IMG/VR virus record: IMGVR_UViG_3300045922_000428
Span: 1-51,711 of that record
DNA length: 51,711 bases
Direction: 5' to 3' (one strand)
From: a virus
Lineage: Duplodnaviria > Caudoviricetes
Position 1 is the stretch's first letter; every line of letters begins with the position of its first letter. A model generated the notes under the pieces. It was not told the origin of the DNA. It worked only from the letters and a program-made list of their open reading frames with translations, and ran no database searches. Below, piece by piece: positions 11,101-38,684 of this stretch. A program made the position numbers and the translations under genes.

Positions 11101-11445
11101 ATGCCTTGGGTGCAGATTGCGGAGCTTTTTTCGGCTGGCGCACTTGCCGGTGTGGCAGGTGCCGTCGCACGTATCGCGCACCCTCGTCGTCGCCGTCTTG
11201 GCAAATGCGTGTTGTGGGAGTTTCCCAGCGCATGTCTGCTCGGTTCTGCGGGCTTTGCGCTCGGGGGCCTGCTTGAATTCAACGAGTATGGTCGGTTTCT
11301 CATCGGGATGGCTTTTGGTTACTTGGGCGTCGCGGCTATTCACGACCTCGTCGTGTCCTTGGTATCATTGCGTATGAAAATGTCTAAGAAGGATGTCGAC
11401 GAGCTCATCATACGTCAATCTTCGGACAAGGATGGTGGCTCATGA
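11101..11445 (+). CDS. Putative holin (LydA-like)
   Basis: Small protein with 2-3 hydrophobic helices, GYLG motif and charged C-terminus. Confidence 0.65.
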   Translation: MPWVQIAELFSAGALAGVAGAVARIAHPRRRRLGKCVLWEFPSACLLGSAGFALGGLLEFNEYGRFLIGMAFGYLGVAAIHDLVVSLVSLRMKMSKKDVDELIIRQSSDKDGGS

Positions 11446-12809
11446 CAGACGCCACTTCCTCAGAATCACTGAAATTACAGTTTCCTGAAAAGCTCAAAAT
11501 ACTTTTTGAGCCGAAGCGCTACAAGATCCTCTACGGAGGACGTGGCGGCGCCAAGTCTTGGGGTGTTGCTCGTGCGCTTCTTGTACTTGGTGCTCACAAG
11601 AAATTGCGCGTGCTCTGCGCCCGTGAGTTTCAGAACTCAATCCAGGAGTCGGTTCATCACTTGCTTGAGTCTCAGATCAAGTCACTTGGTCTTGGGGCAT
11701 TCTACAACACGACGCAATCAAAGATCACTGGTGTCAACGGTACCGAATTCATTTTTGTGGGTCTGAAGAACAACATCAACAACATCAAGTCCTACGAAGA
11801 TTGCGACATCGTCTGGGTCGAGGAGGCTGCCAACGTCTCTAAGCGCAGTTGGGACGTTTTGATCCCTACGATCCGCAAGGAAGGCAGTGAGATCTGGATC
11901 ACTTTCAACCCCGAACTTGAGACTGACGAGACTTACAGCCGCTTCGTCATGTCACCGCCCGAAGACGCACACGTTGTCATGATCAACTGGCGGGACAATC
12001 CGTGGTTCCCTGAAGTGCTGCGAAAAGAGATGCTGGCGCTGAAGGCTCGGGACCCAGCCTCATGGGTCAATGTGTGGGAGGGTCAGTGCTCGCAGACTAT
12101 CGACGGCGCCGTCTATGCCGTTGAGCTTCTAAAAACTTTGGAGGAGAACCGCCGCACGCGTGTGCCGCACGATCCGTCAAAGCCCGTCTATACTGCGTGG
12201 GACCTTGGACGAAGCGACTCTACCAGCATTTGGTTCATACAGCTTGTCGGCTATGAACGCCGATTTATTGACTACTATTCCACGACAGGGCACACGGCTG
12301 AGCACTTTGTTTCAGTGCTCAACGGTAATCCGGAAACAGGTGCCCATCGTTCAGCCTACCACTACGCCACGCACTACTTGCCGCACGACGCGGCTGCCAA
12401 GACAATACTTCACCCGTTGTCTTTTGAGGGCCAGTTGAAGGCGTTGATGCCGAATTCGCGCACCGTGGTGGTTCCGCAAATCTCGATACACGACGGCATC
12501 AACGCTGTACGTACCATGTTTCCGCGCTGCGTGTTTGACCAAAACTTGACGCAGGACGGTTGGCAAGCACTTTCTCATTACCAGTACGAGGTCAAGGACG
12601 GGCGGCGTTCAAAACTGCCTATGCACAATTGGGCGTCGCATGGTGCAGACGCGTTCAGATACGCCGCGGTTGGATTGCGTGACTACTCGAAGCCTGCCGC
12701 CAGCCAGATCCTCCAGGCGTTGGAGTCTGCAAAGAGACCGCGGGTGTCGCAAGATCTCCAACGCTTCAAGTACGGTGGCGGCGGCAACAGTGATTGGATG
12801 AGCCGATGA
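11442..12809 (+). CDS. terL: Terminase large subunit (PBSX-like)
   Basis: YGGRGGAKS Walker A, WVEEA Walker B, TFNP, NWRDNPWF, WDLG and HGADAFRY nuclease motifs. Confidence 0.95.
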   Translation: MTDATSSESLKLQFPEKLKILFEPKRYKILYGGRGGAKSWGVARALLVLGAHKKLRVLCAREFQNSIQESVHHLLESQIKSLGLGAFYNTTQSKITGVNGTEFIFVGLKNNINNIKSYEDCDIVWVEEAANVSKRSWDVLIPTIRKEGSEIWITFNPELETDETYSRFVMSPPEDAHVVMINWRDNPWFPEVLRKEMLALKARDPASWVNVWEGQCSQTIDGAVYAVELLKTLEENRRTRVPHDPSKPVYTAWDLGRSDSTSIWFIQLVGYERRFIDYYSTTGHTAEHFVSVLNGNPETGAHRSAYHYATHYLPHDAAAKTILHPLSFEGQLKALMPNSRTVVVPQISIHDGINAVRTMFPRCVFDQNLTQDGWQALSHYQYEVKDGRRSKLPMHNWASHGADAFRYAAVGLRDYSKPAASQILQALESAKRPRVSQDLQRFKYGGGGNSDWMSR

Positions 12810-15202
12810 GCGAAAACCTCAGCGCACAAGCTGGTACAGAGGGCGCCCAGCGCGAACGCGATCGTGTTCGCACAGTGTCTAAGCGGCAGAGCGACATGCT
12901 GATGCCGGAGATCAAGGAGCGTTTCAAACAGTGCGAGGAATTCGAGGCTTACACCAGACCTATCAACCTTGACGACCGTCGCTTCTACCACGGCGACGCT
13001 GAAAACTTGTTCCAGTGGCCGCGCGGCGTGCTTCAGGACCGTGGAGAAAAGCGGCCACGTATTACGATCAACAAGACACAACACCACGTTGCGTTGATCA
13101 TCAACGACCAGAAGCAGAACAAGACGTCTATCAAGTATCGTGCAACGGGGTTTGGGGCTACGGCGCAATCGGCCCAGATAAACCAGGCACTTGCCAGACA
13201 CGTGATGGCTCAAAGCAATTTTGAAGACATCATGGACAAGGCATGCGAGTTTCAAGTAGTCGAGGGCATGGCTTACTGGCGTGTGGTCACTGATTACGTC
13301 TCGCCGGACTCGTTTGAACAAGAAATCTACATCCGGCCGATCAAAGATCCCCGGATGGTCTATTTGGATCCAAATATTTCGGCAGACGATGGCTCGGACG
13401 CACGGTTTGGGTTCATTTTCTCAGATGTACCGCGATCACTGTTTGAAGCGGAATATCCAGCCTATCGCAATCTTCTTTCGTACTCCAATACTCTGGGGTC
13501 CGACTTCCAAAACATGTGGTACGACAAACACATCGTGCGTGTGGCTGAGTACTATCGACTCTCAGAGGAGCAGGATGAGTTGATCGAGTACGAGGTCGAG
13601 GACGGTTCAGGTGAACGTCGTGCTGTCCGAGCTTCAAAATTGCCGCGCAAGCTGGTTGAACAATTGAAACAGATGCCGACTTCGCGGGTGCGCGAGATCA
13701 CAACCAATAAGTGTGAGTGGTTCAAGATCGTCGGCGGGCGTGTTATCAAACGTGGCGATTGGCCTGGCGCCTATATTCCGATCGTGCGTGTGCCGGGGAT
13801 CGAGTCTATTATTGACGGAAGGTACGACCGACGCGGCCACGTGCGTATGCTGAAGGATCCTCAACGGGTCTATAACTACTATTCCTCTGCTGGTGTTGAG
13901 ACCGTGGCGCTTCAGTCTCGCACGCCGTACATGGCTTCCGCGAAGGCTATCGAGGGGTACGAGGCCTTGTGGGCATCGGCTAACATCGACAACCCATCCG
14001 TGTTGGTCTATAACTCTTATGATGACGAGGGAAACAAGCTTGAGATGCCGCAGCGCATCGAGGGTCCTCGGATGCCGGAAGCGGTTGTCCAGGGTCTGAT
14101 GATTGCATCAAATGAGATGATGTCAGTTTCGGGCCAGTACCCGGCGCAACTTGGGAAAGACGAACAGGAAGTTTCGGGTGTTGCAATCGCCAAGCGTCAG
14201 CAACAGGGTGACACCTCTACCTACCATTTCATCTCCAAATTGTCCATGGCAATCCGCCATACCGGTGTCATTCTTCTGGATCTTTTTCCCAAGGTCTACG
14301 ACACCGAGCGCGTCATCCAGATTGTTGGAGAAGATGGCACCGAGAGTGCGGTGAAGATTGACCCGATGTTGGATTCCGCGTCCGTTGGGTTGTTCGGCGA
14401 GAACGTGCCTGAAAAAGAAGCCCAGAAGATGCGGCGTCGCGGGATGGTCGAGTTTGCGCTCAATCCGGCAATTGGCAGATACGCGGTTTCGGTGGATGTG
14501 GGTCCGTCTTACAACACCCAACGTCAAGAGGCGTGGAACGCACTCAGCCAGATCATCACACAAAACGCGGACCTTACTGCAATCATCGGCGACCTTGCAC
14601 TCAGGTCCGCGGACTTCCCATTGGCGGACGAGGCTGCGGAGCGGCTGCGCCGTATGGTGCCAGCGCAGGCACTTGGTGACGCTCCGTCGCCGGAGGTAAC
14701 CGCGCTGCAACAGCAGGTGCAAAACCTCACGTCAAGCCTTGCTGCGGCTATCCAGGCGCTTGGAGACAAGGCTGCTGACGTCAAGCGGGACCAGGAGAAG
14801 GTCCAAGTTGAAGTCTATAAAGCTGAGACCGACCGCTTGAAGACTATGTTGGATCAGTTGAACCCGGAAGCGTTGCGAGCTTTGATCACGACGACTGTGG
14901 TCGAGGCGTTGAGCACGTCGTTGCAAGACGTGAAGCGCACGACCGAGGCTTTCCTGGCGCCGCCTGAGCTGCCGCCGAATATTCCGGCTGAACTTGGACA
15001 GCCAGAACCTGAGCCATCGACACCGGGTCCGCTTGCAGACCAGGTTGCCCAGGAGCTGGATCAGAGTCTCATTGAAGCCAACGCTATGCCTGCAGGTGAT
15101 GCCAACAACGTGCTTGCGGGCATGCGGCAGGCGCCCGACGGCAAGTGGTACCTGCCGGATCCGCAGCGACCCGGTCAGTATCTTGAAGTTTCGAAAGGAT
15201 GA
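12806..15202 (+). CDS. Portal protein (P22-like)
   Basis: Follows TerL with ATGA overlap; QWP..., RPRITINK, KDPQRVYNY, SGVAI..RQ.QGD, GPSY.TQRQEA. Confidence 0.9.
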   Translation: MSENLSAQAGTEGAQRERDRVRTVSKRQSDMLMPEIKERFKQCEEFEAYTRPINLDDRRFYHGDAENLFQWPRGVLQDRGEKRPRITINKTQHHVALIINDQKQNKTSIKYRATGFGATAQSAQINQALARHVMAQSNFEDIMDKACEFQVVEGMAYWRVVTDYVSPDSFEQEIYIRPIKDPRMVYLDPNISADDGSDARFGFIFSDVPRSLFEAEYPAYRNLLSYSNTLGSDFQNMWYDKHIVRVAEYYRLSEEQDELIEYEVEDGSGERRAVRASKLPRKLVEQLKQMPTSRVREITTNKCEWFKIVGGRVIKRGDWPGAYIPIVRVPGIESIIDGRYDRRGHVRMLKDPQRVYNYYSSAGVETVALQSRTPYMASAKAIEGYEALWASANIDNPSVLVYNSYDDEGNKLEMPQRIEGPRMPEAVVQGLMIASNEMMSVSGQYPAQLGKDEQEVSGVAIAKRQQQGDTSTYHFISKLSMAIRHTGVILLDLFPKVYDTERVIQIVGEDGTESAVKIDPMLDSASVGLFGENVPEKEAQKMRRRGMVEFALNPAIGRYAVSVDVGPSYNTQRQEAWNALSQIITQNADLTAIIGDLALRSADFPLADEAAERLRRMVPAQALGDAPSPEVTALQQQVQNLTSSLAAAIQALGDKAADVKRDQEKVQVEVYKAETDRLKTMLDQLNPEALRALITTTVVEALSTSLQDVKRTTEAFLAPPELPPNIPAELGQPEPEPSTPGPLADQVAQELDQSLIEANAMPAGDANNVLAGMRQAPDGKWYLPDPQRPGQYLEVSKG

Positions 15203-15402
15203 CGCTCATGACCTCGCACAAAAAAGACGACGACAACAAGGACAAGAAGAACCACAAAGAACGGCGGTTGGAGGACATGGCCGACCACGAGCTTGAGCTT
15301 TTGATGGCTGAGCATGCTTCGATCGGTCTCCGCCAGGCAAAGGACGGGAAGTGGTACATGCCCGACCCGAATCGTCCCGGCCGCTATCTTCAACTTTTGT
15401 GA
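15199..15402 (+). CDS. Small protein repeating the portal C-terminal motif
   Basis: GLRQAKDGKWYMPDPNRPGRYL versus portal GMRQAPDGKWYLPDPQRPGQYL. Confidence 0.65.
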   Translation: MTLMTSHKKDDDNKDKKNHKERRLEDMADHELELLMAEHASIGLRQAKDGKWYMPDPNRPGRYLQLL

Positions 15403-15414
15403 GGAGTACGTGTT

Positions 15415-15735
15415 ATGAAACAACGTGCTGCACACATGTTGGTGGCCAAGATGGCTCGCGACATGGCCTGTGAGATCTACGAAGATTGCGCAAGGGACAA
15501 CGTCTTCCGGAAGCTCAATCCGAACATGGAAGATTTTGTCGAACGTACCTATGGGTCGCTTCTGGACCAAGCTCGGCAGGTTCTGGCGGCTATGCTCCAG
15601 CGTGATGATATCGGCGACCTCCTCAAGAACCAGATTTACGAGGCCCTGTGTCTCGACGAAATGTTCCAACGCCCGGCCAATGTGGTCGTACCGCAGAGTG
15701 GCCGAGAGGCGCGAGAAATGCTGACCAAGCACTGA
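15415..15735 (+). CDS. Hypothetical protein
   Basis: GAGGAG SD; lies in the head module. Confidence 0.65.
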   Translation: MKQRAAHMLVAKMARDMACEIYEDCARDNVFRKLNPNMEDFVERTYGSLLDQARQVLAAMLQRDDIGDLLKNQIYEALCLDEMFQRPANVVVPQSGREAREMLTKH

Positions 15736-15805
15736 GCTGTCCGCGAACAATCGCGGCTGAGGGCTTCCTGGGCGGCCCAAGCAAAACGCCCTGCGCAGAG
15801 AGAAG

Positions 15806-16804
15806 GTGTTTGAAACAATGTCTACCAACAAGATTGAACCTGAAGACGGTTCCTTGCAGTTTTCAGGCAACGTGCCTCGTGGCGTCGGCTTTGGTGCCGG
15901 CGTGCCAGAAGAATTGCACCCAGCGCGAGTGCTGTCAGAAACCGCGCTGGCAGCTCGTCCGCCCGCGATCCAGCGGGTCGAGGAGGCCGAGGATAGGCCA
16001 GAAGAGAAGGTCGAGTCCGAGACCGAGGTTGACAAGAAGCAGTCTCCAGAGGTCTCTAAGGAGAACCAAGACGAGTCTGACGACGCGTCGAAGGATGATG
16101 CAATCGTCTCGGACGATGATGATGACGATGGCGACGACGAGTCGAAGCGTGGCAAACCGCCAAAGTGGGTCAGCCGTCGCATCGACCGGATCACAAGGGA
16201 CAAGTGGGAGGCGCGGCGGCAGGCCGAGGAGGCCAACAACCGTGCGACGGAGCTGTTCGCGCGACTACAGGCCGCCGAGGCGCGACTTGCTGAGTTGACC
16301 GCCGGCGCTGAACAGACGCCCCTCACTTCTGAAGATGTCGAGAAGCTCGCTGCAGCACGAGCTGAAAAACTCGCCGCCAGCAAGGCCGCCGAGTTGCAAT
16401 TCAACAACGACTGCAACGAGATCTTTGAGTCCGGTGTGCGTCGGTTCAGTGATTTTGAACAGATGATGAACAACTATCGGACAGTCGGAGGCCTCACCGT
16501 GGAGATGGTGCAAGCCGCAATGCTCACGGGAGACGCGCCTCTTGCTCTCCACAGGCTCGCGCACAATCTGGATGAGGCCCACGCAGCGCGTTTCATGCCG
16601 CGTGACCAGTTGGCGGTCAAGCTGACGAAGATGGTGGAAAAGGCAAAGCTCAAGCGCGTTGCCGCCTCCGTCAGCAAGGCCCCGGCTCCTGTCGAGCCGA
16701 TCCGCGGAGGTTCTCCGAAGCCGCCGGTTGATCTGGAAAAAGTGTCGATGGAGGAATTCATCGCAATGCGCAACGAGCAGATCGCGGCGCGACGCCGCCG
16801 CTGA
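15806..16804 (+). CDS. Capsid scaffolding protein (putative)
   Basis: Acidic N-half, RRIDRITR coiled coil, SKAPAPVEP and C-terminal SMEEFIAMRN helix; position before the coat gene. Confidence 0.75.
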   Translation: MFETMSTNKIEPEDGSLQFSGNVPRGVGFGAGVPEELHPARVLSETALAARPPAIQRVEEAEDRPEEKVESETEVDKKQSPEVSKENQDESDDASKDDAIVSDDDDDDGDDESKRGKPPKWVSRRIDRITRDKWEARRQAEEANNRATELFARLQAAEARLAELTAGAEQTPLTSEDVEKLAAARAEKLAASKAAELQFNNDCNEIFESGVRRFSDFEQMMNNYRTVGGLTVEMVQAAMLTGDAPLALHRLAHNLDEAHAARFMPRDQLAVKLTKMVEKAKLKRVAASVSKAPAPVEPIRGGSPKPPVDLEKVSMEEFIAMRNEQIAARRRR

Positions 16805-16833
16805 TTTGACCGTTTTGTACGGGGGTTCGTGGT

Positions 16834-18525
16834 ATGTCTGGGTCTAACAACAAACTCTCGCCGTACCTTCGTGCGTACCACGGCTCCCCGTATGATTTCC
16901 AGAAATTTGAAAACAGTGCCATCGGGACTGGCGAGGGCGGGAAAGCTTATGGTGCCGGTCACTACGTGGCTGAAGCCAGGGAAACCGGTGAGCATTACAT
17001 GCGGAGCGTGACTCGTGAGCGCACTAACGATAGCCTGTCTAGGCTAGTGTGGCGCGGTCATCCCGATTTTCCGGATGGATCGAGCCACCTTGACGTTGCC
17101 AAGTTGCTTGATCCTAAGACGGGTGACGACGTCGATTTAGATGACCACGTCAAGGCGTCTGTGGCTAGATTTCTAAGTGGAGAATACTACTTTCCAGACG
17201 TTTCTACATCTCGCGACGTTGATAAGGTGAAGTCAGCTGCTATTGACAGCGCGAATCGTGCGCTGGACATTGAGGCAAGGTACCGCCAAAAAAATCCAAA
17301 TATTCCCAAAGATGGGCTCGGGCCCGTTTTGGAATGGGTTGGAAAATCTAAGCTGACGGGACAGGACGTCAAATATTTTAATTTGTTAAATGATATTCTC
17401 AGCAATGACAGAACTACCGGGTTTTTTTCTAAACACGGACACGCAATTAAGGATGCTGAGCTATTTCCAGGTTGGCAGTTCGGAACCTCTAAGGAACTCA
17501 AAGCAGGTATCCACAGATACTTTGCAGGACTGTCAAAAATGGCTGGTCGAGTCGCGGCGCGCCGCGCGTCTCAAAAAGACTTTTTCAAGTCTCTGGAAAA
17601 AGACTACCAGGACGCGCGTGACGCTTCTGCCGACGTGTACAATCTATCAAAGTGGTATGCTAAAAATCAAACAAATATTGAGGCGGCAAAGTTTCCAGCC
17701 TACAACCGTATCAGAGAGATTGTAGACTATATTTTCAAAAACTCAAATTTTGAGACTACAAATAACGCTCCTCCCGGCCGTCTTTACGAGCTTGCTCTTA
17801 AGGTAGATCCAAACAAAATGTTGGATTGGGACAATTCTATTGGTAGCCACCATGTCGATCTTCAACAGGCTGTGAGGACAATACCTGAACTTGCTCGCGC
17901 CCTGGAACATACTTATGACAAGTCCGGGAAAATTGAACACTACGCTTATTTGAGCCCCAGATACTCAACCGGCGCTGATATCTACAAATATCTTGCCAAT
18001 CAGCGCGGCGGCCCAGTCTTGGCCACAAAGGCGCTTCATGAAGCTGGTATCCATGGAATCAAATACCTAGACTTGTTGTCACGTGGATCCAAACCGCATG
18101 CGCAAATCTATTTTGATGGAAAGCCCGTAAACAAGAACAGCCCGCCCGTTACGACGCCAGGGGCGGGAACGGCCGAGGAAAAAATTCAAAATGACCTTGC
18201 GCTTCTTCAGAGAACTGTTGAAGAGCACCGTGTCAATGCTGGAAATATTGACGAATTGTTCGACGATCTGCTGAACAGAACTGCTAATCTTTTAGGAGCC
18301 GTTAAATTACACAAATCCATACGTTCCGCCTATGAGTCTGCAAAGTCTCTGGGCGATCGTATCTCGGTCAAGCCCAATTCAAACGTGACTTATAACTATG
18401 TCATCTTCGATCCTGATATGATACAAATCGTCCGTAAGTACGATCTTGGTGGAAATTTGGTCGAAGATTACGGCTTCCATGTCAGGGAAGTCGACGGCAA
18501 TCCGTTTGAAGGAGAAGACAAGTGA
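16834..18525 (+). CDS. ART-PolyVal-like ADP-ribosyltransferase-fold protein, paralog A
   Basis: YHGSPYDF..F...IGTGEG..AYG.G.Y.AE; LDWD; GI.GIKYLD..SR; TYNYVIFD. Confidence 0.72.
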   Translation: MSGSNNKLSPYLRAYHGSPYDFQKFENSAIGTGEGGKAYGAGHYVAEARETGEHYMRSVTRERTNDSLSRLVWRGHPDFPDGSSHLDVAKLLDPKTGDDVDLDDHVKASVARFLSGEYYFPDVSTSRDVDKVKSAAIDSANRALDIEARYRQKNPNIPKDGLGPVLEWVGKSKLTGQDVKYFNLLNDILSNDRTTGFFSKHGHAIKDAELFPGWQFGTSKELKAGIHRYFAGLSKMAGRVAARRASQKDFFKSLEKDYQDARDASADVYNLSKWYAKNQTNIEAAKFPAYNRIREIVDYIFKNSNFETTNNAPPGRLYELALKVDPNKMLDWDNSIGSHHVDLQQAVRTIPELARALEHTYDKSGKIEHYAYLSPRYSTGADIYKYLANQRGGPVLATKALHEAGIHGIKYLDLLSRGSKPHAQIYFDGKPVNKNSPPVTTPGAGTAEEKIQNDLALLQRTVEEHRVNAGNIDELFDDLLNRTANLLGAVKLHKSIRSAYESAKSLGDRISVKPNSNVTYNYVIFDPDMIQIVRKYDLGGNLVEDYGFHVREVDGNPFEGEDK

Positions 18526-19130
18526 GCGTCTCAAACAAATTGACAAGCTCGGCCGGCTTCTCTATCAGTGAAGTACGGGACCCACAAAAGCTTTACGATG
18601 TGTTCAAACAATCCTACACTGCGGAAACCGGCAAGTCGTGGGATCAACAAAAGTTTGAAAGTCGTGCCAGCAACTGGAGGTTCTACGGCGACGAGAACGG
18701 CTACGTGGCGGTCAGACCACAAAGGTCCGGGATGTACAAGTTGGTCGGCGTGGCTGGTGCACCGCGCAGCATCGTCAGGGGGCTCGACCAGCTGATAGCC
18801 GAGGACGTTCCGATCTGGGGCGCGGTTTCAGAGCCGTTGGCGCTCATGGCGCGTCGGAAGGGCTTCGTGGCACCGCACCTGCACTTTGGTGGGCCCACAC
18901 TGATCAAGCACGTGCTTAGCAACGTGCCTGACAGCGTGTTTGGGGGCATCAAGCCCACGATCAACAACGACGGTTCGATTGAACTTGACTACCCGGACAC
19001 TGGAAAGGCCACGAAATACCTCATTGCCAATAAAAAATACCTGAAGCAGCTGACCGGTGTTCCGCAAGTGGCTGATAAGATCAAGGAGTCGTCTGCCGTC
19101 AAAGCGTTCATGAGGCTTGTGGGTCTGTAA
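18522..19130 (+). CDS. Hypothetical protein within the ART cassette (possibly GNAT-like fold)
   Basis: GTGA-coupled to paralog A; fold guess from the alpha/beta pattern only. Confidence 0.6.
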   Translation: MSVSNKLTSSAGFSISEVRDPQKLYDVFKQSYTAETGKSWDQQKFESRASNWRFYGDENGYVAVRPQRSGMYKLVGVAGAPRSIVRGLDQLIAEDVPIWGAVSEPLALMARRKGFVAPHLHFGGPTLIKHVLSNVPDSVFGGIKPTINNDGSIELDYPDTGKATKYLIANKKYLKQLTGVPQVADKIKESSAVKAFMRLVGL

Positions 19131-19131
19131 G

Positions 19132-20880
19132 ATGTCAGACACAAACGACGCCAAGAAGAACAATCGTGTGCACGCCGCCATCATGGCGTGGCACGCCTCG
19201 CCTTACAATTTTGACAAGTTTGCCCCCATGCGGAATGTTTCCGGCCAAGGACAAGGCGCCGCAACGTATGGACGCGGCGCGGCGTACCTTGCTGAAAGCG
19301 AGAAGGTTTCGGGGCCTGGTCTATCCGAATATATGAAGGAGTTTCGGTCGCATCCAGAAGTTACTAAACAACTGGATAAACCGAGATACCAGATCCGCGA
19401 TCCTAACAATAGGGATAATTGGATAGATCTTGCGGCACATCGTGACTTCTTCAAATTTCACGATAACTCGTCTTCGCAAGACCTTGATCATCCTGAATTT
19501 GGTAAAAACTTTGTACTATCTGAGCTTTCTTCTGACAACAGCGTTGGTAGGCGCAACGCATTTATTGATAGTCTTAAGAGTCGCCTAAACTTGTATCGCG
19601 GCGTTTCAGACGACGAGAAAAAAGAGCTGCTTGAGAAAACAAAAGAAGATATGCGGGCAAGGTTTGACTGGGAAGCGTACGACATTGAGCACGCCAAGAA
19701 AGTAATTGACTACCTCCAAAGCGATCATTACCGCAACGATGTCCGCTATTATAACCCCTATACTGAGGGGAATTATTTTTTGGACCAACCACTGTCCTAT
19801 TGGTCAACGGCTCTGAAGAACAATACAATTGAGCCTAAGCTGATCAAAAAATTCAAAGAACTTGGTTTGCTAACAGATGTTGACCATGAAGTCGCGGCTG
19901 AAGAAACTTCAAGAATGTTGGAATACATCATTGAAACCATGGATGACTCATATGAAGACCATATTTTTACCAGCGTTGAAGATATGGCCGAACACTATAT
20001 CGAAATGAAATTGGACACTATGGAACATGAGAATATATACGATCTTGAGAAGGAAGATGAATATTGGAAATATATCAAAAAGCATTTGATGCCAAAGTTT
20101 GAAGATCGTATGAAGTTGGGGGGGCCGTATTCCTATCGCGTGGCCGTTCACGCCAGACCGGAAACTCTGCTTGATTGGGACAAACCGTTTTCGAGGCAGC
20201 ATCCAAACGTCCAAGAGGCAATTCTGCGTGCCGTGCCAGTGCTAGATAGACAGTTGTTTCCAAGCGACGAGTCTCACAGAGCGGCTGTGGAGCTTATTCA
20301 AAAGAATGCACGACACATCTATGCCGGTCTTAAGACTGGTAGGAACATCTACGAAAATCTTTCGCATGCGCACGCACTCCCGGACTCGCAGGAGCATGAC
20401 GAGGAAAAACGGCTCCGCGACGGCGCGTACAACGCTTCTGAGGCGTTGTACAATGCGGGTGTTCACGGGATTCGATACTTGGACGGGAATAGCCGAGCGT
20501 TGGCATCAGAACTTTACATCAAAGAAAAAGACTCAGAGATGTATGTTTCACCGACTGCCCGTGGCCCAAACGCAAGGTGGGAAGCGGGATATGCTGCCCG
20601 GTATGTCGAAAAAAATCACATCGACAGTGTACCAGAGTTGATCCAAGCACTTTCTAATTCCGGCTATGTTGCAGAAAATGCTCTTAAATGGGTGGAATCC
20701 AACAAGGATAAATTGCATATCAAGGTCCCGAAGCGGACCTACAACTATGTCATCTTTCACCCCGAGGTGTTGGAAATATTGGCCAAGTACAATATTCATG
20801 GAGACATGATCGAGTCGTTTGGCCCAGGCGCGCACTTCAAGGAAGTTGATCACAATCCATTTGAGGATGAAGACAAATGA
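19132..20880 (+). CDS. ART-PolyVal-like protein, paralog B
   Basis: WHASPYNFDKF...GQGQGAATYGRG..YLAE; LLDWD; GVHGIRYLDGNSR; TYNYVIFH. Confidence 0.7.
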   Translation: MSDTNDAKKNNRVHAAIMAWHASPYNFDKFAPMRNVSGQGQGAATYGRGAAYLAESEKVSGPGLSEYMKEFRSHPEVTKQLDKPRYQIRDPNNRDNWIDLAAHRDFFKFHDNSSSQDLDHPEFGKNFVLSELSSDNSVGRRNAFIDSLKSRLNLYRGVSDDEKKELLEKTKEDMRARFDWEAYDIEHAKKVIDYLQSDHYRNDVRYYNPYTEGNYFLDQPLSYWSTALKNNTIEPKLIKKFKELGLLTDVDHEVAAEETSRMLEYIIETMDDSYEDHIFTSVEDMAEHYIEMKLDTMEHENIYDLEKEDEYWKYIKKHLMPKFEDRMKLGGPYSYRVAVHARPETLLDWDKPFSRQHPNVQEAILRAVPVLDRQLFPSDESHRAAVELIQKNARHIYAGLKTGRNIYENLSHAHALPDSQEHDEEKRLRDGAYNASEALYNAGVHGIRYLDGNSRALASELYIKEKDSEMYVSPTARGPNARWEAGYAARYVEKNHIDSVPELIQALSNSGYVAENALKWVESNKDKLHIKVPKRTYNYVIFHPEVLEILAKYNIHGDMIESFGPGAHFKEVDHNPFEDEDK

Positions 20881-22241
20881 GCCGCTTCAAGATTGCCTCG
20901 CGGCTGTACCACGCCTCGCCTTATGATTTCAACCAGCTTCGGGATCCACTGGATTACGTAGGAAAGGGTCAGGGCGCCAGTACGTACGGCGCCGGGCTGT
21001 ACGTTGCAGAGAGCCCCGAAATCAGTGGGCCCGGACGTTCTCACTACATGCTTGAATTTGATCTGCATCCGGCGGTCATTGCGCGATCAGGCGAGCCCCA
21101 GGAATTTTTTCTCAATAAAAAAGTGTCACCAAATGCAGGTGCTCTTAATGCATACTCGGACAATGATATTGAATATCTTCGCAAAATTGTCAATTCCGAA
21201 GCAGATCGTGTAAGTAAGACTAGGGATAATCATCCAATTTTTGACCACCAAGTAAATCTGAAAAATATGAGCAATGCAGAAGTAATTAGCGGTCTCCGGA
21301 GACTATTTTCAAAATACCGTTCTGTCTTTAACAGCGGTTGGTACGGTGATAATCTGAATTTTCACGATTTTTTACATTTGTATCCTACTAGTGTAGAGAA
21401 GCGTGCCCTGTCCAAGCCTGTTGACAAAAAAGAGCGCTCTGACGCAGAGTTTGCAAAAATGCTAGCCGGCGTGAGCAGTATTTTGCCTGGTGAAACATTT
21501 CAATATCGACGACTGGACGGCGGGCCACTTTCATATGAGATGTCGTTTGGACTCGGTCCGCACGAAGTGCTTCTGTGGGACCACCCGCTTGATGTTCACC
21601 ACCCAGACGCCCGCACGGCACTTGAGCAACTGTACGACGACGAGGTCGGTCTGCCACGCATACAATCGCGTATAGATCGTCGTGGAATTGGGGAACGTTA
21701 CTTTGTCGATATGGCTGAGTATACCAGTGGTGAAGAGCTGTATAAAGAGCTAGCAAACCGTCTTGGGGGCCGGGAAAAAGCATCTCGTTTGCTCCGATCA
21801 TACGGAATTCGCGCCATCAAATACCGGGATCAAAAAAGCAGGTGGTTGGACAACGAACTTTTGCTTGATCTGGACACCAATTCTGAAGAGTTTCCTAAGC
21901 CGACGTCCGACGAAGACGAGGCTTTTTTTGTTTTGAAAAACATGGTGCGGTCTAGGGAGTTTTACACGCTTGATGAAATCAATAGTTATATTGAAGACTT
22001 TATTAAAAGAAAACTTGCTTCCCCAGTTTTTGAAATTACTTTGAAAAATGCGCAGAAGTTCTTGAAAAAGTACAAAGATAGGTTGTCAATACGCGTGCCG
22101 GAGCGCACACACAATTATGTGTTGCTTGACGAGAAAGCTGCCAGGCTGCTTGCCAAGTATGACATTAAAGGAAACAAGGTAGAAGACTTTGGGGGCGAGG
22201 CCGTCGTATTGAAGCCTGTGGACCATGACCCGTTCAAGTAG
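20877..22241 (+). CDS. ART-PolyVal-like protein, paralog C
   Basis: YHASPYDF...GKGQGASTYGAGLYVAE; LLWD; GIRAIKYRDQKSR; THNYVLLD. Confidence 0.7.
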   Translation: MSRFKIASRLYHASPYDFNQLRDPLDYVGKGQGASTYGAGLYVAESPEISGPGRSHYMLEFDLHPAVIARSGEPQEFFLNKKVSPNAGALNAYSDNDIEYLRKIVNSEADRVSKTRDNHPIFDHQVNLKNMSNAEVISGLRRLFSKYRSVFNSGWYGDNLNFHDFLHLYPTSVEKRALSKPVDKKERSDAEFAKMLAGVSSILPGETFQYRRLDGGPLSYEMSFGLGPHEVLLWDHPLDVHHPDARTALEQLYDDEVGLPRIQSRIDRRGIGERYFVDMAEYTSGEELYKELANRLGGREKASRLLRSYGIRAIKYRDQKSRWLDNELLLDLDTNSEEFPKPTSDEDEAFFVLKNMVRSREFYTLDEINSYIEDFIKRKLASPVFEITLKNAQKFLKKYKDRLSIRVPERTHNYVLLDEKAARLLAKYDIKGNKVEDFGGEAVVLKPVDHDPFK

Positions 22242-22267
22242 CCGACACAAAGCTGGCTGATTTTTTA

Positions 22268-22296
22268 TGTACACGAGCCAAGAAACGCGGTAATCG
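22268..22296 (+). promoter_or_regulatory. Putative promoter TGTACACG-N8-AACGCGGTA upstream of the coat gene
   Basis: Matches the motif at 8208. Confidence 0.5.
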
Positions 22297-22428
22297 TACG
22301 CCCACAACTGGGCTTCGGCCCTGCAGAGCCTGCATGACATCCTCGGTTGCTGGCGCCGAGAAAAACTTGTTGGATGCTCAAGATCTTCCGACAAGCCGAC
22401 GCCAACCCATCAACCGAAGGAGGCCCAC

Positions 22429-23664
22429 GTGGCCAATCAGCTTCTCACCATCAACATGGTCACCCGCGAGGCGGTGCGGCTGTGGAAGAACAGCAACGCC
22501 TTCCTCCAGAGTATCGACACCCAGTACGACGACCAGTACGCGCGTACCGGCGCAAAGATCGGGATGTCGCTGCGCATCAGGCTGCCGAACGACTACATCG
22601 TCCGTACCGGACCGGCAATCCAGACGCAGGGCACGACCGAACCGTCGATCAGTCTGGTCGTCGCGACCCAGAAGGGCGTCGACATCGACTTCAACTCCGC
22701 TGAGCGCACCATGTCGCTCGACGACTACTCCAGCCGGGTGCTGGCGCCTGCCATCAACAATCTGGCCGGCAACATCGCTGCGGACATCATGGGCGGCGTC
22801 GAGGGCGGGATCTGCAACTTCATCGCCAACGTCGACGGCGGCGGCAACATTCTCAGTCCGACCGCCGCCACCTGGCTGACCGCTGGGGCCATCCTCGACG
22901 CCAACTCTGCGCCCATGGCAGACCGCAAGGTGGTCAATGACCCGTTCTCCGATGCGCGGACGGTCGCCACGCTCGCGGGTCTCTTCAACCCGACACCGCG
23001 CATCAGTGAGCAGTACAACACTGGCGCGATGCGTGACGCGCTGGGCTACCTGTGGATGCGCGATCAGACTGTCATCAAGCACCGGAACGGCAGCTTCACG
23101 GCCGGCACGGTCAATGGCGCCAACCAGACGGGCACCACGCTGCTGGTCAACCCGATCACTGGTTCGCTGAACCAAGGCGACATCATCACCATCGCTGGCG
23201 TCAACGCGGTGAACCGTATCACCAAGGTGACGACAGGCCAGCCGCGACAGTTCGTCGTGACTGCGCCGGCGCCCTCGGGTTCGACGTCGATCAACATCTT
23301 CCCCGCACTGGTGCCGGGCACCCAGAACTACAATCCCGACACCGGCAACGGTGCGCAACAGTACCAGACAGTCGACTTCTCGCCGGCCAACGCCGCGCCG
23401 ATCGCGCTCACCTCGCTGCCCAACGCAGTCTATCGCAAGAACTTCCTGTTCGCGCCCGAGGCTGTGACCATGGCGGCGGCGGATCTTGAGCTGCCCACGG
23501 GCTCGGTGTCCGAGGCCTACCGAGAGAGCTTCGACAACATCTCGATCCGCATGGTCACCGGCTACCTGCTCGGCACGGACGTCACTGTGACGCGAATGGA
23601 CGTTCTGTACGGCTATGTCTGGGTGCGCCCGGAATGGGCAGTGGTCGTCGCCGATTCGATCTGA
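22429..23664 (+). CDS. Major capsid protein (P22 coat-like)
   Basis: MANQLLTINMVTREA, QYDD.YA..GAKIG..LRIRLP, RMDVLYG...RPEWA; AAGGAGG SD; strong codon bias. Confidence 0.92.
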   Translation: MANQLLTINMVTREAVRLWKNSNAFLQSIDTQYDDQYARTGAKIGMSLRIRLPNDYIVRTGPAIQTQGTTEPSISLVVATQKGVDIDFNSAERTMSLDDYSSRVLAPAINNLAGNIAADIMGGVEGGICNFIANVDGGGNILSPTAATWLTAGAILDANSAPMADRKVVNDPFSDARTVATLAGLFNPTPRISEQYNTGAMRDALGYLWMRDQTVIKHRNGSFTAGTVNGANQTGTTLLVNPITGSLNQGDIITIAGVNAVNRITKVTTGQPRQFVVTAPAPSGSTSINIFPALVPGTQNYNPDTGNGAQQYQTVDFSPANAAPIALTSLPNAVYRKNFLFAPEAVTMAAADLELPTGSVSEAYRESFDNISIRMVTGYLLGTDVTVTRMDVLYGYVWVRPEWAVVVADSI

Positions 23665-23702
23665 TCTACGATTGACTCGGTGAGTGTTTTGTTCAACTGA
23701 AC

Positions 23703-23730
23703 CGGGGTCCGCTGTAACTCAGCGGCCCCG
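23703..23730 (+). terminator. Stem-loop after the coat gene
   Basis: cggggtccgctg-taact-cagcggccccg. Confidence 0.45.
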
Positions 23731-23751
23731 TCAACGCAAAGGAAACTTCCT

Positions 23752-24027
23752 GTGAACTACCCGGCAAACACGGGGCGCGTGCCAGAGCCGGCATACGTCC
23801 ATCAGGAGTTCCCGAAGTGGGTGAACGGGCGCATCGTCTATTCCGCAGAGGAAGAGCAGGCGGTGTCCAACAAAGAGCCCGAAGACCCGCCGACCGTCAC
23901 CGTGAGCGTGGCTCAAATGGAGCCGGCTCACGTTGAGGTGCCGCCGCCTCAGATGTTGAGCGGAGACTCCAACCACCTGTTCCCGACACCGACCAAGTCT
24001 GGTCGTCGGGCGGGTGTCAAGCGGTAA
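23752..24027 (+). CDS. Hypothetical protein
   Basis: QEFPKWV...IV.SAEEE motif, common right after coat genes of such phages. Confidence 0.6.
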   Translation: MNYPANTGRVPEPAYVHQEFPKWVNGRIVYSAEEEQAVSNKEPEDPPTVTVSVAQMEPAHVEVPPPQMLSGDSNHLFPTPTKSGRRAGVKR

Positions 24028-27387: not shown

Positions 27388-27723
27388 ATGGCATTCACAC
27401 CTCAACAACTGACGCCGACCCAAGCGGTGCCGACCACTGTTACGGCGGTTTATACGACACCCGCAGGTGCGCGTGCAATCATCCGTCAGGCCGTTTTGAC
27501 AAACGTCACAAACGGGCCGCACACAGTGACGATCCACGTGGTGCCTGCAGCTGGCAGCCCGACCACCGACAACATTATCACCTTTGAGCAACGTCTGGGG
27601 CCGGCCGAGACTCAGATTGTCCAACCTCTGCTCAACACCGTGTTGACTGGCGGCGTTACCGTTCAAGCCGTGGCTTCGTCAGCCGCCTCAGTCAACATCA
27701 CTTTGGGAGGATTGTTCGTGTAA
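27388..27723 (+). CDS. Small structural protein
   Basis: AAGGAG SD; beta-rich YT.PA...II...TN pattern. Confidence 0.6.
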   Translation: MAFTPQQLTPTQAVPTTVTAVYTTPAGARAIIRQAVLTNVTNGPHTVTIHVVPAAGSPTTDNIITFEQRLGPAETQIVQPLLNTVLTGGVTVQAVASSAASVNITLGGLFV

Positions 27724-28211
27724 TGGCGGACGTCGGTTGCGCAGTTTCGAGGAAGATCAGGCCGGACCAAGTTTCGGTTGAGCTTGAACCATTTTCAAAC
27801 GCCTACGCTGACATCTGCAAAATCATGCACTACCATTGGTTGGAAGTGGCTAAGGATCTTGTGACTGAATTGGACCTTGACCACAGGTTCTTTGCCGCGA
27901 TGGATCGTGCTGGCAAGTTGGTGCTGGTAACGGCGCGCCACGGCAAGACACTGGTCGGCTACATCTTATTTTGCATCTTTAGGCCGCCGCACTATAATAT
28001 CATCGTGGCGGCTGACGATGCTCACTACTTGTTGCCTCGATATCGGACGCTCCCACTTTTTACGCGAATGGTTCGTTGCGGCGAGGCGGCGTTGAAGTCA
28101 AAAGGTGTACAGGTCGTGCGCTTTCACACAAAGACCAAGGTTGATCGCACCAAGGTCTTCAAGCATCTTGGTTACGAGCCCGAGGAAATCCTCGTGCAGC
28201 GGAGGATCTGA
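27723..28211 (+). CDS. GNAT-family acetyltransferase-like protein
   Basis: LVGY, YLLPRYR, F..LGY; typical position before ejection proteins. Confidence 0.65.
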   Translation: MADVGCAVSRKIRPDQVSVELEPFSNAYADICKIMHYHWLEVAKDLVTELDLDHRFFAAMDRAGKLVLVTARHGKTLVGYILFCIFRPPHYNIIVAADDAHYLLPRYRTLPLFTRMVRCGEAALKSKGVQVVRFHTKTKVDRTKVFKHLGYEPEEILVQRRI

Positions 28212-28213
28212 AC

Positions 28214-29077
28214 ATGGCGTTTTCCGCAGTCGGCGCGCTGGGGGCAGCTACAGGACTGGCGTCTTCTCTGATTGGTGCGCGTGCGTCCAGGCGCGCCGCT
28301 AATCAGCAAGTTGCCGCTACACAAGAGGCCACGGCGGTTACGCAAAGAGAATTGGACCGCATTCGTGAAGACCTTGCCCCGTATCGTGGCATTGGTTTGC
28401 AGGGCGCGCAGGCGCTGCCGTGGTTGTTGAACCTTCAAGGCGACCCAAGATATTCTGCGCTTGGCGCTGGCGGTGAAGTGTACGGTCCTGATCTCGCCTA
28501 CCAGTATTTTCAACCCACAATGGCGCAGCTGCAGCAGACGCCTGGCTACCAATTTGCTCTCAATGAAGGCCTCCGAGCCGTCATAAACAATGCAGCGGCC
28601 CGCGGCCTGGCAGGTTCTGGCGCGCAGGCGCGCGGCATGATGCAGTTTGCAACCGGCCTGGCATCCAACACCTACCAGCAGCAACTTGGCAACCACATGG
28701 CGCAGTTTGGCACAGATCTGAATGCCAGGCTTAGTCAAAACGCGCAGCGGTTCGGTCAGCAGGTGGCCAATGACACCAACCTTTACAACCGGCTTATGGG
28801 CGTGGCAGGTCTTGGCCAGAATTCGGCAGCGTTGTCGGCAAATCTTGGCATGGCAGGCGCTGGACAGATCGGCTCCAACCTGATTGGTGGCGGTAACGCG
28901 GCGGCCTCCGGTGCCATCGGGAGTGCCAACGCGATCGCAGGCGGCCTCAACGCGATTGCAGGTGCAGCCCAACAGTCGCTGGTCTTGAACAGGCTTCTCG
29001 GCAACACCACATCTGGGTTTAACAACCCGCTGGCGTCATCCGGTGTAACGGATCCCAGCACGATTTCTCGGAGATAA
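28214..29077 (+). CDS. DNA ejection/transfer protein (P22 gp7-like)
   Basis: Gly/Ala/Gln-rich; LAPY...G, TPGYQF.L.EG, AAARGL.GSG, G.GQN.AA. Confidence 0.75.
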   Translation: MAFSAVGALGAATGLASSLIGARASRRAANQQVAATQEATAVTQRELDRIREDLAPYRGIGLQGAQALPWLLNLQGDPRYSALGAGGEVYGPDLAYQYFQPTMAQLQQTPGYQFALNEGLRAVINNAAARGLAGSGAQARGMMQFATGLASNTYQQQLGNHMAQFGTDLNARLSQNAQRFGQQVANDTNLYNRLMGVAGLGQNSAALSANLGMAGAGQIGSNLIGGGNAAASGAIGSANAIAGGLNAIAGAAQQSLVLNRLLGNTTSGFNNPLASSGVTDPSTISRR

Positions 29078-35600: not shown

Positions 35601-36172
35601 AGACTGACGTGAGGCATCTGGACCCACCGATCTAACAGCCGTGACTTGCGGTAGTCACAGGATTGGCCGAAGGATACCATGCGTTGTTCCCAAGAACTGA
35701 GCCAAAGATCCTTGGCCTCTTGGTGCGGGTACTCGTGGACAAAGTAGATTGAAGAACACCAGGTGTTCATGAGCATCTTGACGCAATGTATGCACGGGCT
35801 GTGTGTGACGTAGCACGCGTCAATCTTTGTGTGGTCTCTCACCTGGATCAATGCATTCTGCTCAGCGTGGATGGCGTGGCAACCGTCCAAGTTGGTCCCC
35901 GAAGCGCTTGACGCGCCGGGGCACCTGTACGGGTAATCCAATTGCATTGAGCCGTCTGCGGCCGTAGAGTACCGGGGCTCGTTGCAGTGATCAACACCCG
36001 AGGCCACTCCGTTGTACCCAGTGCTGAGCACAAAGCCGTTGACGTCCAACAACACGCATCCGACACGGCGGCGAAGGCACGTCGACCGTTGCGCCGTAAC
36101 AAGCGCCAACTTCAACGCCCATTGATGACGACAGATGCGGCCGTATGTTGCTGACGTGGTCGTTGTGTCCAT
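35591..36172 (-). CDS. dCMP deaminase
   Basis: RSTC.RR.VG, GYNG, HAEQNA and PCxxC zinc motifs. Confidence 0.9.
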   Translation of the reverse strand: MDTTTTSATYGRICRHQWALKLALVTAQRSTCLRRRVGCVLLDVNGFVLSTGYNGVASGVDHCNEPRYSTAADGSMQLDYPYRCPGASSASGTNLDGCHAIHAEQNALIQVRDHTKIDACYVTHSPCIHCVKMLMNTWCSSIYFVHEYPHQEAKDLWLSSWEQRMVSFGQSCDYRKSRLLDRWVQMPHVSLQT

Positions 36173-36184
36173 GTGACATTCTCC

Positions 36185-36221
36185 AAAAGTAGCAGCGCGA
36201 ACCAAGATCTGCCCGCGCTGC
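36185..36221 (-). terminator. Terminator-like hairpin between the TS-like gene and dCMP deaminase
   Basis: GCAGCGCG-loop-CGCGCTGC followed by TACTTTT on the minus strand. Confidence 0.5.
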
Positions 36222-36274
36222 CGAAATGGTCAGAATGTAGTGCTCTCTGCGACTAGGACTGCCATACTCTACAC

Positions 36275-37114: not shown

Positions 37115-37135
37115 TGAGGCTTCTCCTTCTCCTTC

Positions 37136-38197: not shown

Positions 38198-38684
38198 GGC
38201 ACCGCTCCTCCACGATCCCGAACATGTCGCAGTATGGCTCTTCGTCAAAGCCAAACCTGGTCAGGATCTCCTCAATGTTTGGAGGCGTCCAGCCCTCCGG
38301 CTTCATCAGATCGACCGCGTGGCCGCGTTTGGTCGCGCCACGCTCCTTGCTCATGTTGGCCCTGTGGACCTCGTCCCAGAGCTGTTGGAACGGCAAGCCG
38401 AGGATGACTGCGGTACCGATGGCGAAGTAGACCAAGTCGACCAGCGCATCGGCCTGCTTGACCAGGTCCTGGACCATGGCGGCGTCCTGGAATTCCTGAA
38501 GCTCCTCCATCATGCACGCAGCGCGCTCCTGCAACAGCCGTCGCGTAGCCAGGCCTGGCACCAGATGGTTGCAAAAGCCAAACTTTCGGTGCATGCGCAG
38601 AACGTCACAGAACAGGTTCCCGTGAGTGGACAGAAGATCCTCGACGTTGTTGCAACCGGGGACCGTGTCATTGTTGCTGCTCAT
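38187..38684 (-). CDS. MazG/PRA-PH-like dNTP pyrophosphohydrolase
   Basis: EELQEF...DALVDLVYFA.G...WDEVHRANMSK...KPEGW.PP. Confidence 0.8.
   Translation of the reverse strand: MSSNNDTVPGCNNVEDLLSTHGNLFCDVLRMHRKFGFCNHLVPGLATRRLLQERAACMMEELQEFQDAAMVQDLVKQADALVDLVYFAIGTAVILGLPFQQLWDEVHRANMSKERGATKRGHAVDLMKPEGWTPPNIEEILTRFGFDEEPYCDMFGIVEERCRDH

Follow-up and report, generated by a model that had tools for sequence, protein, structure and literature searches.

Three tandem ART-like paralogs and a GNAT-fold gene between the scaffold and coat genes of an uncultured phage

The four-gene cassette

The window considered here, that is, the whole stretch of DNA that was analysed, is the entire 51,711-base IMG/VR virus record IMGVR_UViG_3300045922_000428, which has direct terminal repeats and a CheckV completeness of 100%. 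The phage is a complete, apparently lytic podophage with a P22-like head, and among cultured phages the closest to it in coat protein is Pseudomonas phage PAE2 (57.6% identity). Between the scaffold and major coat genes of its head operon lies a 5.4-kb cassette of four open reading frames (ORFs). Three of these, A, B and C, encode paralogous proteins that resemble ADP-ribosyltransferases (ARTs), and the fourth, ORF-X, situated between A and B, encodes a predicted GNAT-fold protein. The cassette, its parts and the head genes around it are as follows:

12794–15202, plus strand: P22-type portal gene, start of the head operon (PF16510, E = 1.7e-151; phrog_156)
15806–16804, plus strand: head scaffolding protein gene, 332 amino acids (aa), immediately 5' of the cassette (phrog_8865, E = 1.5e-11)
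16834–18525, plus strand: ART-like paralog A, 563 aa, denoted "A-type" (hidden Markov model (HMM) of the clade, E = 6e-141)
17005–17769, plus strand: insert 1 of A, residues 58–312, an AT-rich orphan segment (GC content 0.464)
18382–18522: equivalent in A of strand 5 and the C-terminal tail
18522–19130, plus strand: ORF-X, 202 aa, predicted GNAT fold (AlphaFold predicted local distance difference test score (pLDDT) 88.3)
19132–20880, plus strand: ART-like paralog B, 582 aa counted from the ATG
19342–20121, plus strand: insert 1 of B, residues 71–330, the most AT-rich segment (GC 0.405)
20731–20877: equivalent in B of strand 5 and the C-terminal tail
20877–22241, plus strand: ART-like paralog C, 454 aa, the copy that was modelled
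21057–21518, plus strand: insert 1 of C, residues 61–214, helices modelled with low confidence (GC 0.418; GC at third codon positions (GC3) 0.357)
22101–22238, plus strand: strand 5 and conserved C-terminal tail of C (T.NYV ... KYDI.GN.V.D ... VDHDPF)
22429–23664, plus strand: P22-type major coat gene, immediately 3' of the cassette (PF11651, E = 5.9e-28; phrog_283, E = 8e-55)

The family matches of the flanking genes (phrog_8865 and PF11651) bear out the preliminary description of this locus, made from the letters alone, in which the cassette was said to split the scaffold–coat pair. That description was also right about the translational coupling of the genes: the stop codon of A overlaps the start codon of ORF-X (GTGA), the stop codon of ORF-X lies 1 nt 5' of the ATG of B, and the stop codon of B overlaps the start codon of C (ATGA). 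In Pseudomonas phage PAE2 and Acetobacter phage phiAX1, the gene preceding the coat gene directly abuts it, and the 5.4-kb cassette is therefore an addition. The region 15000–24000 contained five promoter-like sites (5.9 expected) and 13 terminator-like sites (10.1 expected from shuffles). Since these counts are near the shuffle expectation, they give no evidence for the cassette as a separate transcription unit.

A, B and C are true paralogs. BLASTP aligned A and B in a single full-length segment pair (E = 1e-27, 26% identity), A and C through their C-terminal halves (E = 2e-21) and N-terminal blocks (E = 3e-9), and B and C in two matches (E = 1e-20 and 3e-16). In the three-way alignment, the invariant columns of the N-terminal part are H16, S18-P19-Y20, F22, G31/G33/G35, Y39-G40, G42, Y44 and A46-E47; those of the middle part are Y318, L330/W332-D333 and G380/Y384/L387; and those of the C-terminal part are G405/I409/Y411/D413/S416-R417 and T519/N521-Y522-V523. 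These columns are the collinear blocks of the preliminary description. In comparisons of single blocks, every pair was similar in the N block, in the middle core and in the tail (E = 8e-7 to 5e-18).

The AT-rich segments between the blocks are, as had been noted, without detectable similarity to one another. Insert 1 (255 aa in A, 260 aa in B and 154 aa in C) gave no significant similarity between paralogs, the best E-values being 0.58 and 0.82, with no match at all between A and C. A second insert of ~80–100 aa, which the preliminary description had not set apart, is found between the Y.D..SR and T.NYV blocks and is similar at its distal end only (B–C, E = 9e-5). The tail blocks that follow are again similar between the paralogs (E = 2e-11 to 3e-18). 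The tail, [KQ]Y[DN]I.G[NED]K[VIL].D ... V[DE]H[DN]PF, is kept in all nine aligned proteins of the clade and in the copies in the related viral contigs L113 and L115. The tail, with its V[DE]H[DN]PF end, is specific to the clade and is absent from the wider family.

Relation of the proteins to the ART and GNAT families

The assignment of the three proteins to the ART-PolyVal domains, as first proposed from the pattern of the blocks, held up in profile and structure comparisons. A profile built from the three paralogs matched 31 other proteins (E = 3e-42 to 1e-4), and PF18760 is present in 23 of them. These relatives share all of the blocks: HGSPY.F..F...IGTGEGAQAYGHGLYFAE, followed by G..YEV.I....LDWD.PLS.Q, GI.GI[KR]YLD..SR and GT[RS]NYV[IV]FD. 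The PF18760 model itself matched nine of ten homologs, five of them only as far as profile position 62 of 140, and matched A at residues 12–57 only, with 15.6 bits (E = 0.028), which does not reach the gathering cut-off of 31.2 bits. The variable insert follows the first block, so that the Pfam model mostly covers only its first 45–60 positions.

The polypeptides that contain insert-bearing copies also have compact, full-length copies of the domain at other places. A 23-sequence profile of the family was searched against 1.84 billion cluster representatives and matched 19,180 of them at E ≤ 1e-3 (11,339 at E ≤ 1e-30); many of these are 1,000–7,242 residues long, with up to seven matched stretches each. 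For comparison, 28 compact ART-PolyVal-type domains were taken from those polyvalent proteins, and the same profile was aligned to them globally with hhalign. The alignment had a probability of 97.3% (E = 7.6e-11, 155 columns) and paired the His and Tyr blocks, the third strand, the G.DG block and strand 5. This pairing across the core places A, B and C in an insert-bearing branch of the polyvalent-protein ART domain. A tblastn search with paralog A gave no match at E ≤ 1e-3 in 50,697 phage records, and the relatives in cultured phages described below were found with a compact family member, P0006, as the query.

Compared with the ART-PolyVal domains as presented in the available part of Iyer et al. 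(2017, PMC5512222), the window proteins have the same His and G.G.Y blocks, the core homology and the ART fold, and they are alike in their phage provenance, their multiple copies per element and their head-gene neighbourhood. They differ in being three stand-alone genes rather than modules of one giant protein, and in having two large inserts, which leave only the first ~45 positions visible to the Pfam model. In the literature that was searched, no description was found of tandem stand-alone ART-PolyVal genes in a head operon.

A model of C was made with AlphaFold2 from a 23-row alignment (pLDDT 70.1, predicted template modelling score 0.65). The conserved blocks and insert 2 were predicted with a pLDDT of ~90, and insert 1 was helical, with a pLDDT <50 over most of residues 68–212. 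When this model was compared with 48,161 representative chains by VIA-align, ranks 2–38 were all ART-type (Z = 5.0–7.3), including tankyrase 2 (Z = 7.3), diphtheria toxin (6.9), ParT (6.6), MbcT (6.5) and PARP1 (6.0); non-ART rows start at rank 39. Of these 37 chains, 29 are titled as PARP or tankyrase, as diphtheria-, exotoxin A-, cholix- or pertussis-type toxins, or as ParT, and we take the remaining eight to be ART/RES toxins or an ART anti-CRISPR. Rank 1 was a phage protein, considered in the section on delivery below. Foldseek against BFVD gave 17 matches at E ≤ 1e-3, with names that include ART-PolyVal-like, "Large polyvalent protein associated domain" and a protein of Burkholderia phage Bp-AMP4. 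Such labels in BFVD and UniProt show that the family is already known to public annotation. The model of C thus matches ART folds by VIA-align and by Foldseek against BFVD, although not by Foldseek against the PDB. The uniform list of ARTs, taken with the profile evidence, makes the ART fold a safe call.

Among the known ARTs, those of the H-Y-E type (PARPs and diphtheria toxin) matched the fold with Z = 5.8–7.3. In a search of the PDB chain sequences with the 23-sequence profile, only tankyrase rows were returned (E = 0.4–0.95). In the E = 0.4 match, which is not significant, HGSP and G.G.Y.AE are aligned with the His and Tyr blocks of tankyrase, which brings the His-Gly-Ser and Gly-x-Gly-x-Tyr-Phe-Ala-Glu blocks into register. 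From the same chains, a profile of five compact domains returned only CapP (E = 0.68).

The candidate active site is well conserved except for its acidic residue. H12 and Y42 (C numbering) are invariant in the 23 sequences and are located in modelled strands 7–14 and 41–44, respectively; a second invariant Tyr follows 15 residues after the strand-2 Tyr. In the clade, at 26–35% identity to A, the His, the strand-2 Tyr, the second Tyr and the strand-5 Asn are invariant in nine of nine copies. Strand 5 reads T-[YH]-N-Y-V-[IL]-[FL], and its Asn has a conservation of 90% or more in the 23 sequences. After the strand-5 aromatic, five residues past the Asn, A and C have Asp and B has His; each of the five aligned L083/L084 copies also has His at this position, and the wider family has Asp, Asn or Pro there. 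The PARP strand-5 pattern is E-Y-I-V-Y-D; N-Y-V-[IL]-[FL]-D has the same spacing, with Asn where the catalytic Glu stands. The modelled strand 412–416 of C begins one residue before the Asn, which fits the Asn-for-Glu register, and the register of the hhalign alignment is ambiguous within strand 5. A replacement of the catalytic acid by Asn, as the preliminary description suggested, is therefore plausible from the aligned sequences. The ARTs of polyvalent proteins were described as having an H-Y-D active site and grouped with the H-Y-type ARTs (available part of Iyer et al. 2017, PMC5512222), whereas here strand 5 has Asn as its conserved polar residue, and the Asp close to it varies.

The comparison with T4 Alt made in the preliminary description is a functional analogy only. 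Alt is a head-packaged, injected, NAD+-using enzyme that modifies host proteins (PMC5512222, available part), and it belongs to the R-S-E clade (Alt/VIP2). A, B and C have His and Tyr at the corresponding positions, and not the Arg, Ser-x-Ser and Glu configuration; hence, they are not members of the Alt/VIP2 clade.

ORF-X is unrelated to the ART genes, as had been noted. It had no match in Pfam (even at E ≤ 5), PHROG or NCBIfam, and the NCBIfam search of the four window proteins and three relatives returned nothing beyond a chance-level row of 15 bits. Every row listed by Foldseek for the ORF-X model against the PDB was a GNAT acetyltransferase, such as PCAF and GCN5 (best E = 6e-4; two rows at E ≤ 1e-3, the rest at 1e-3 to 8e-3; TM 0.30–0.59), and the atlas search gave weak leads (0.85–0.86). 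On this structural evidence, ORF-X is a predicted GNAT-fold protein. A GNAT family neighbours the ART domain in polyvalent proteins (PMC5512222, available part); ORF-X likewise has the GNAT fold, but no Pfam, PHROG or NCBIfam match.

We found 13 homologs of ORF-X (35–68% identity), and in 23 viral loci, the ORF-X-type domain is mostly contained within larger ORFs. Ten of these larger ORFs were scanned with Pfam. Two have an N-terminal Acb1 anti-CBASS phosphodiesterase (PF23474, E = 2.5e-38 and 7e-33), and one has a PARP-type N-terminal part (PF00644, E = 1.6e-6):

L085, 8612–10576: Acb1 fusion with an ORF-X-type domain
L086, 9494–10579: Acb1 fusion with an ORF-X-type domain
L105, 3903–5639: PARP-type fusion with an ORF-X-type domain

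These fusion partners point to a possible counter-defence or host-modifying role for ORF-X. In the phage collection, ORF-X was matched only in LR756501.1 and LR756503.1, records of a 735-kb uncultured phage (39622–40092; 44% identity over 80% of the query, E = 2e-40).

Turnover and composition of the cassette in related phages

The preliminary description suggested that this locus be compared in related phages for copy number and insert turnover, and both were found to vary. The combination of GNAT and multiple ARTs was present in five viral contigs, whose coat proteins are 63–69% identical. The order in L084 is portal, small ORF, ORF-X, three ARTs (443, 423 and 417 aa), small ORF, scaffold and coat, and L113, L114 and L115 have the same type of order, with ARTs of ~445, 475 and 420 aa. 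In L112, which is the same contig as L083, the order is portal, ORF-X, a 157-aa ART fragment, three ARTs, small ORF, scaffold, a fourth ART (490 aa), small ORF and coat. The cassette thus usually sits between portal and scaffold. The window and L112 share an A-type copy located between scaffold and coat, and only in the window are all four genes found there. The scaffold protein of the window is homologous to that encoded at L112:7020–7808 (E = 6e-20).

The number of ART copies per cassette ranges from three to four plus a fragment. The fragment, a 157-aa ORF (L112:2608–3081, plus strand) located between ORF-X and the first full ART, was matched by the clade ART model (E = 3e-10) and looks like a truncated extra copy. 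In a broader set of 153 loci, 141 had one ART-like gene and 12 had two or three; these counts are lower bounds, and the set includes the window, three window sub-loci (L108–L110), and both L083 and L112 from the one contig.

The fourth ART of L112 (7812–9284) is the positional ortholog of A (E = 2e-29 and 1e-14). Only residues 4–63 and 315–559 of A align with it, indicating that insert 1 has been replaced or has diverged past recognition. The earlier proposal of swappable target-recognition inserts is therefore upheld in part. The inserts do turn over; exchange of modules and target recognition found no support, because insert 1 of A matched itself alone among 2002 candidates (proteins of 309–986 aa were searched), and insert 1 of B had no usable feature match in the atlas search, where all structure rows had TM <0.36. 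Insert 1 is thus an orphan and a variable segment.

A tree of 18 proteins supported the clade at 100/100. The L113 and L115 copies pair by position, while the three L084 copies form one group (100/100) with mutual identities of 57–60%. The two L083 copies group together (97/96), and A groups weakly with the protein P0002 (88/69). B and C of the window are unresolved and sit on long branches, the longest being that of C. Copy number and sequence therefore turn over quickly, by lineage-specific duplication or conversion.

The ART genes have a GC content of 0.465–0.476, compared with 0.54–0.64 in the flanking head genes (GC3 0.64–0.86). Within them, the N blocks have a GC of 0.55–0.58 and a GC3 of 0.61–0.65, and insert 1 has a GC of 0.405–0.464 and a GC3 of 0.36–0.46. 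The AT-richness of the inserts extends to the third codon positions and is thus not solely an effect of amino acid content. The ART genes were 5–10 points lower in GC and 10–25 points lower in GC3 than the flanking head genes and the adjacent GNAT gene in four phages (the loci compared were window 16834–22241, L084:5980–9882, L113:8061–12096 and L112:3074–9284, with a locus GC of 0.50–0.61). A recent foreign origin was considered as the cause of the AT-richness and rejected, since the same offset recurs in all four: the low GC travels with the ART genes and is not a mark of recent import. Weak codon selection and fast AT-biased change are possible causes of this persistent offset.

Long branches, C having the longest, and a low GC3 might also be expected of decaying cargo, that is, of duplicates under relaxed selection, some or all of which have no current function. 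Copies do decay, as the fragment in L112 attests, and B has lost the Asp after the strand-5 aromatic. Still, all three frames are open over 454–582 codons, each copy retains every conserved block and the C-terminal tail, and translational coupling has been maintained, all of which makes decay a very unlikely explanation for the cassette.

Delivery, function and genome context

The highest-ranked VIA-align match to the model of C was chain 9k3a_B, residues 1418–1607 (Z = 10.5, root-mean-square deviation 4.3, 160 aligned residues). This chain is gp27, a 1717-aa outer-layer protein of the pre-ejectosome of cyanophage A4 (A-4L) (PMC12002296, main text). Residues ~1418–1607 of gp27 of Anabaena phage A-4L (L111, NC_024358.1; 20116–21192, minus strand) are ART-like by fold. 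The region contains YHGT ... GSGTYF motifs, similar to the blocks of the window proteins, and matched the compact-domain HMM with E = 9e-5 in a single-target search; Pfam gave nothing relevant for gp27. While gp27 resides inside a podophage capsid and is the best structural match of C, it is a much larger protein, encoded after the tail genes, and its profile match is not significant.

Other relatives are also associated with virion proteins or head genes. A family member is contained in the 1686-aa "structural protein P5" of Ralstonia phage RS-PI-1, and others in annotated internal virion proteins of RS-PII-1 and Burkholderia phage AMP1. Gene 5 of Sulfitobacter phage phiGT1 is a family member located between portal and scaffold; the terms gp5 and ADP-ribosyl are absent from the available text of the phiGT1 paper (PMC10386132). 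Among 68 viral loci, the nearest upstream gene of at least 200 aa was the portal in 15 and the large terminase in nine. A literature search combining ADP-ribosyltransferase, internal virion protein and phage returned nothing on this family, as judged by titles and the beginnings of abstracts. Head packaging has been predicted for this ART family on the basis of such contexts (Iyer et al. 2017, PMC5512222; 2022, PMC9503650; available parts). Delivery in the virion fits the gene position, these published predictions and, by analogy, the fold match in the pre-ejectosome. Prediction of a complex between the scaffold (332 aa, 5-row alignment) and C (454 aa, 23-row alignment) scored 0.00 twice; it was run without controls and says nothing on binding.

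The match to gp27 also bears on a different explanation, in which the ART fold is non-catalytic and the proteins are structural components of an internal core, pseudo-enzymes that organise the DNA or the ejection proteins as the gp27 region does. In the main text of PMC12002296, gp27 is presented as a structural layer that contacts the DNA, and no enzymatic role is given for it; strand 5 lacks a conserved acidic residue, and the long helical inserts resemble the all-helical ejection proteins. A purely structural role is nevertheless hard to reconcile with the His, two Tyr and Asn that are invariant or nearly so over 23 members at 20–30% identity, and with blocks kept across 19,180 cluster representatives, as is typical where selection maintains a ligand pocket. 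A fixed copy number would also be expected of a structural layer, rather than three to four copies plus a fragment arising by lineage-specific duplications, and PAE2 and phiAX1 have no such genes between portal and coat. For these reasons, we consider a structural role quite unlikely.

On balance, we lean towards the explanation that the cassette is a "disaggregated polyvalent effector" set, consisting of three stand-alone ARTs and a GNAT-fold enzyme that would be packaged, ejected and used to modify the host. The four genes would be transcribed and translated with the head-morphogenesis genes, so that their products appear late, at the same time as portal, scaffold and coat. They would then be taken into the procapsid, for which the clade-specific V[DE]H[DN]PF tail at the C-terminus is a candidate signal, and exit with the DNA at the next infection. 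In the new host, the ARTs may use NAD+, and the GNAT-fold protein acetyl-CoA, to modify host targets for takeover or counter-defence. The set presumably diversified by repeated tandem duplication and through its fast-evolving inserts. This explanation builds on the findings described above, namely the paralogy, the ART-PolyVal-type homology, an ART fold that keeps its His and Tyr, the GNAT fold of ORF-X, the location within the head operon, and the recurrence and turnover of the cassette in relatives; to these it adds packaging, ejection, NAD+ use, host targets and roles for the inserts and the tail, which we infer.

Several results weigh against the effector set. At the level of family and fold, PF18760 reported no match on B or C, and that on A is below the cut-off; Foldseek of the model of C against the PDB gave only unrelated rows (best E = 0.84); the ART Z-scores of 5–7 are within the range for which VIA-align warns of a possibly common arrangement; and the sequence profiles matched neither 9k3a nor any ART in the PDB at a significant E-value. 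Since the strand-5 acid is not conserved, catalysis may be altered or lost. Given that gp27 has no significant profile match and that ADP-ribosylation is not mentioned in the main text on A4 (PMC12002296), the link to the pre-ejectosome consists of the fold and a weak motif match. Seven of the ten scanned ORF-X fusion ORFs had no Pfam match, which tempers the argument from its fusion partners. Finally, packaging and expression of the four proteins are deduced for a phage that comes from an uncultured IMG/VR record, and because a full set of ejection genes is present downstream (28214–29077 and 30778–33297), the ARTs are not needed for ejection.

These last two points would equally suit active ART and GNAT enzymes that are not packaged but act late in the producing cell, for instance by blocking abortive-infection defences based on NAD+ or nucleotides, or by modifying host or phage proteins before lysis. 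In line with such a role, L085 and L086 have the ORF-X domain fused to Acb1, an anti-CBASS enzyme that is cytoplasmic. The ART GC3 agrees with it too, being clearly below that of the head genes in four phages, which fits lower expression than that of structural proteins. We regard action in the producing cell as unlikely, because in six genomes the genes keep a stable syntenic place inside the portal–scaffold–coat block, their stop and start codons overlapping, because some family members form part of proteins annotated as internal virion proteins, and because a relative by fold is part of a solved pre-ejectosome. Moreover, counter-defence is usually required early rather than late in infection.

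A fuller form of the effector-set explanation can be formulated, in which the GNAT and the ARTs are an injected kit loaded by way of the tail, the ARTs work with a His-Tyr-Asn site, the inserts set the target of each paralog, and duplication widens or changes the range of targets. As part of the same proposal, His-Tyr-Asn ARTs would need substrate-assisted chemistry or would act on a non-protein acceptor. It is doubtful that this combination is right as a whole.

The ART family is large, published and labelled in databases; consequently, the genes in the window are an addition to a known family, and the finding mainly confirms predictions already published for it. The novelty is modest and lies in the stand-alone, tandem, fast-turnover ARTs with a GNAT partner in a small phage clade, in their shared tail and in the question raised by strand 5. 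Should packaging and activity be borne out, this group of phages would offer a simple natural system in which to study injected ARTs, where separate small genes, in naturally varied sets, are easier to express, delete and assay singly. The shared C-terminal tail would then be a testable candidate for a capsid-loading signal, and the group would bear on the activity of the insert-bearing ART-PolyVal branch without a conserved strand-5 acid.

The head module is P22-like, and an ordinary set of ejection and tail genes is located further downstream. Two small ORFs are found between the portal and scaffold genes, adaptor and head-closure genes follow 3' of the coat gene, and a 565-aa ORF is present among the downstream ejection and tail genes. 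A family A DNA polymerase, an SNF2 helicase and a primase-helicase are encoded on the other arm of the genome, along with a PD-(D/E)XK nuclease and a nucleotide-modification group. No integrase was found among the window ORFs scanned. The additional features are:

11442–12809: large terminase gene, head module
27723–28211, plus strand: acetyltransferase-like gene, first of the ejection-protein genes (phrog_1249, E = 1.9e-9)
28214–29077: "DNA ejection" gene
30778–33297: gene for SLT transglycosylase and ejection protein
33294–35600: pectate-lyase-like tailspike gene
35591–36205, minus strand: dCMP deaminase gene
36275–37114, minus strand: thymidylate-synthase-like gene
37136–38254, minus strand: UDG-superfamily gene
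38681–39598, minus strand: methyltransferase gene

The run of nucleotide-metabolism genes at 35591–39598 on the minus strand may be a DNA base-modification module. The acetyltransferase-like gene at 27723–28211 is unrelated to ORF-X by position; according to the annotation of the phiGT1 record, a gene resembling it is found at the equivalent position in P22 and T7. Directly 3' of the portal gene, a 67-aa ORF (15199–15402, plus strand) copies the last ~25 residues of the portal protein (DGKWY.PDP.RPG.YL) and matches the portal C-termini of L077 (54%) and L044 (46%) over 26–28 aa. The same motif is present in the post-portal ORFs L084:5076–5363 and L113:6736–7443.

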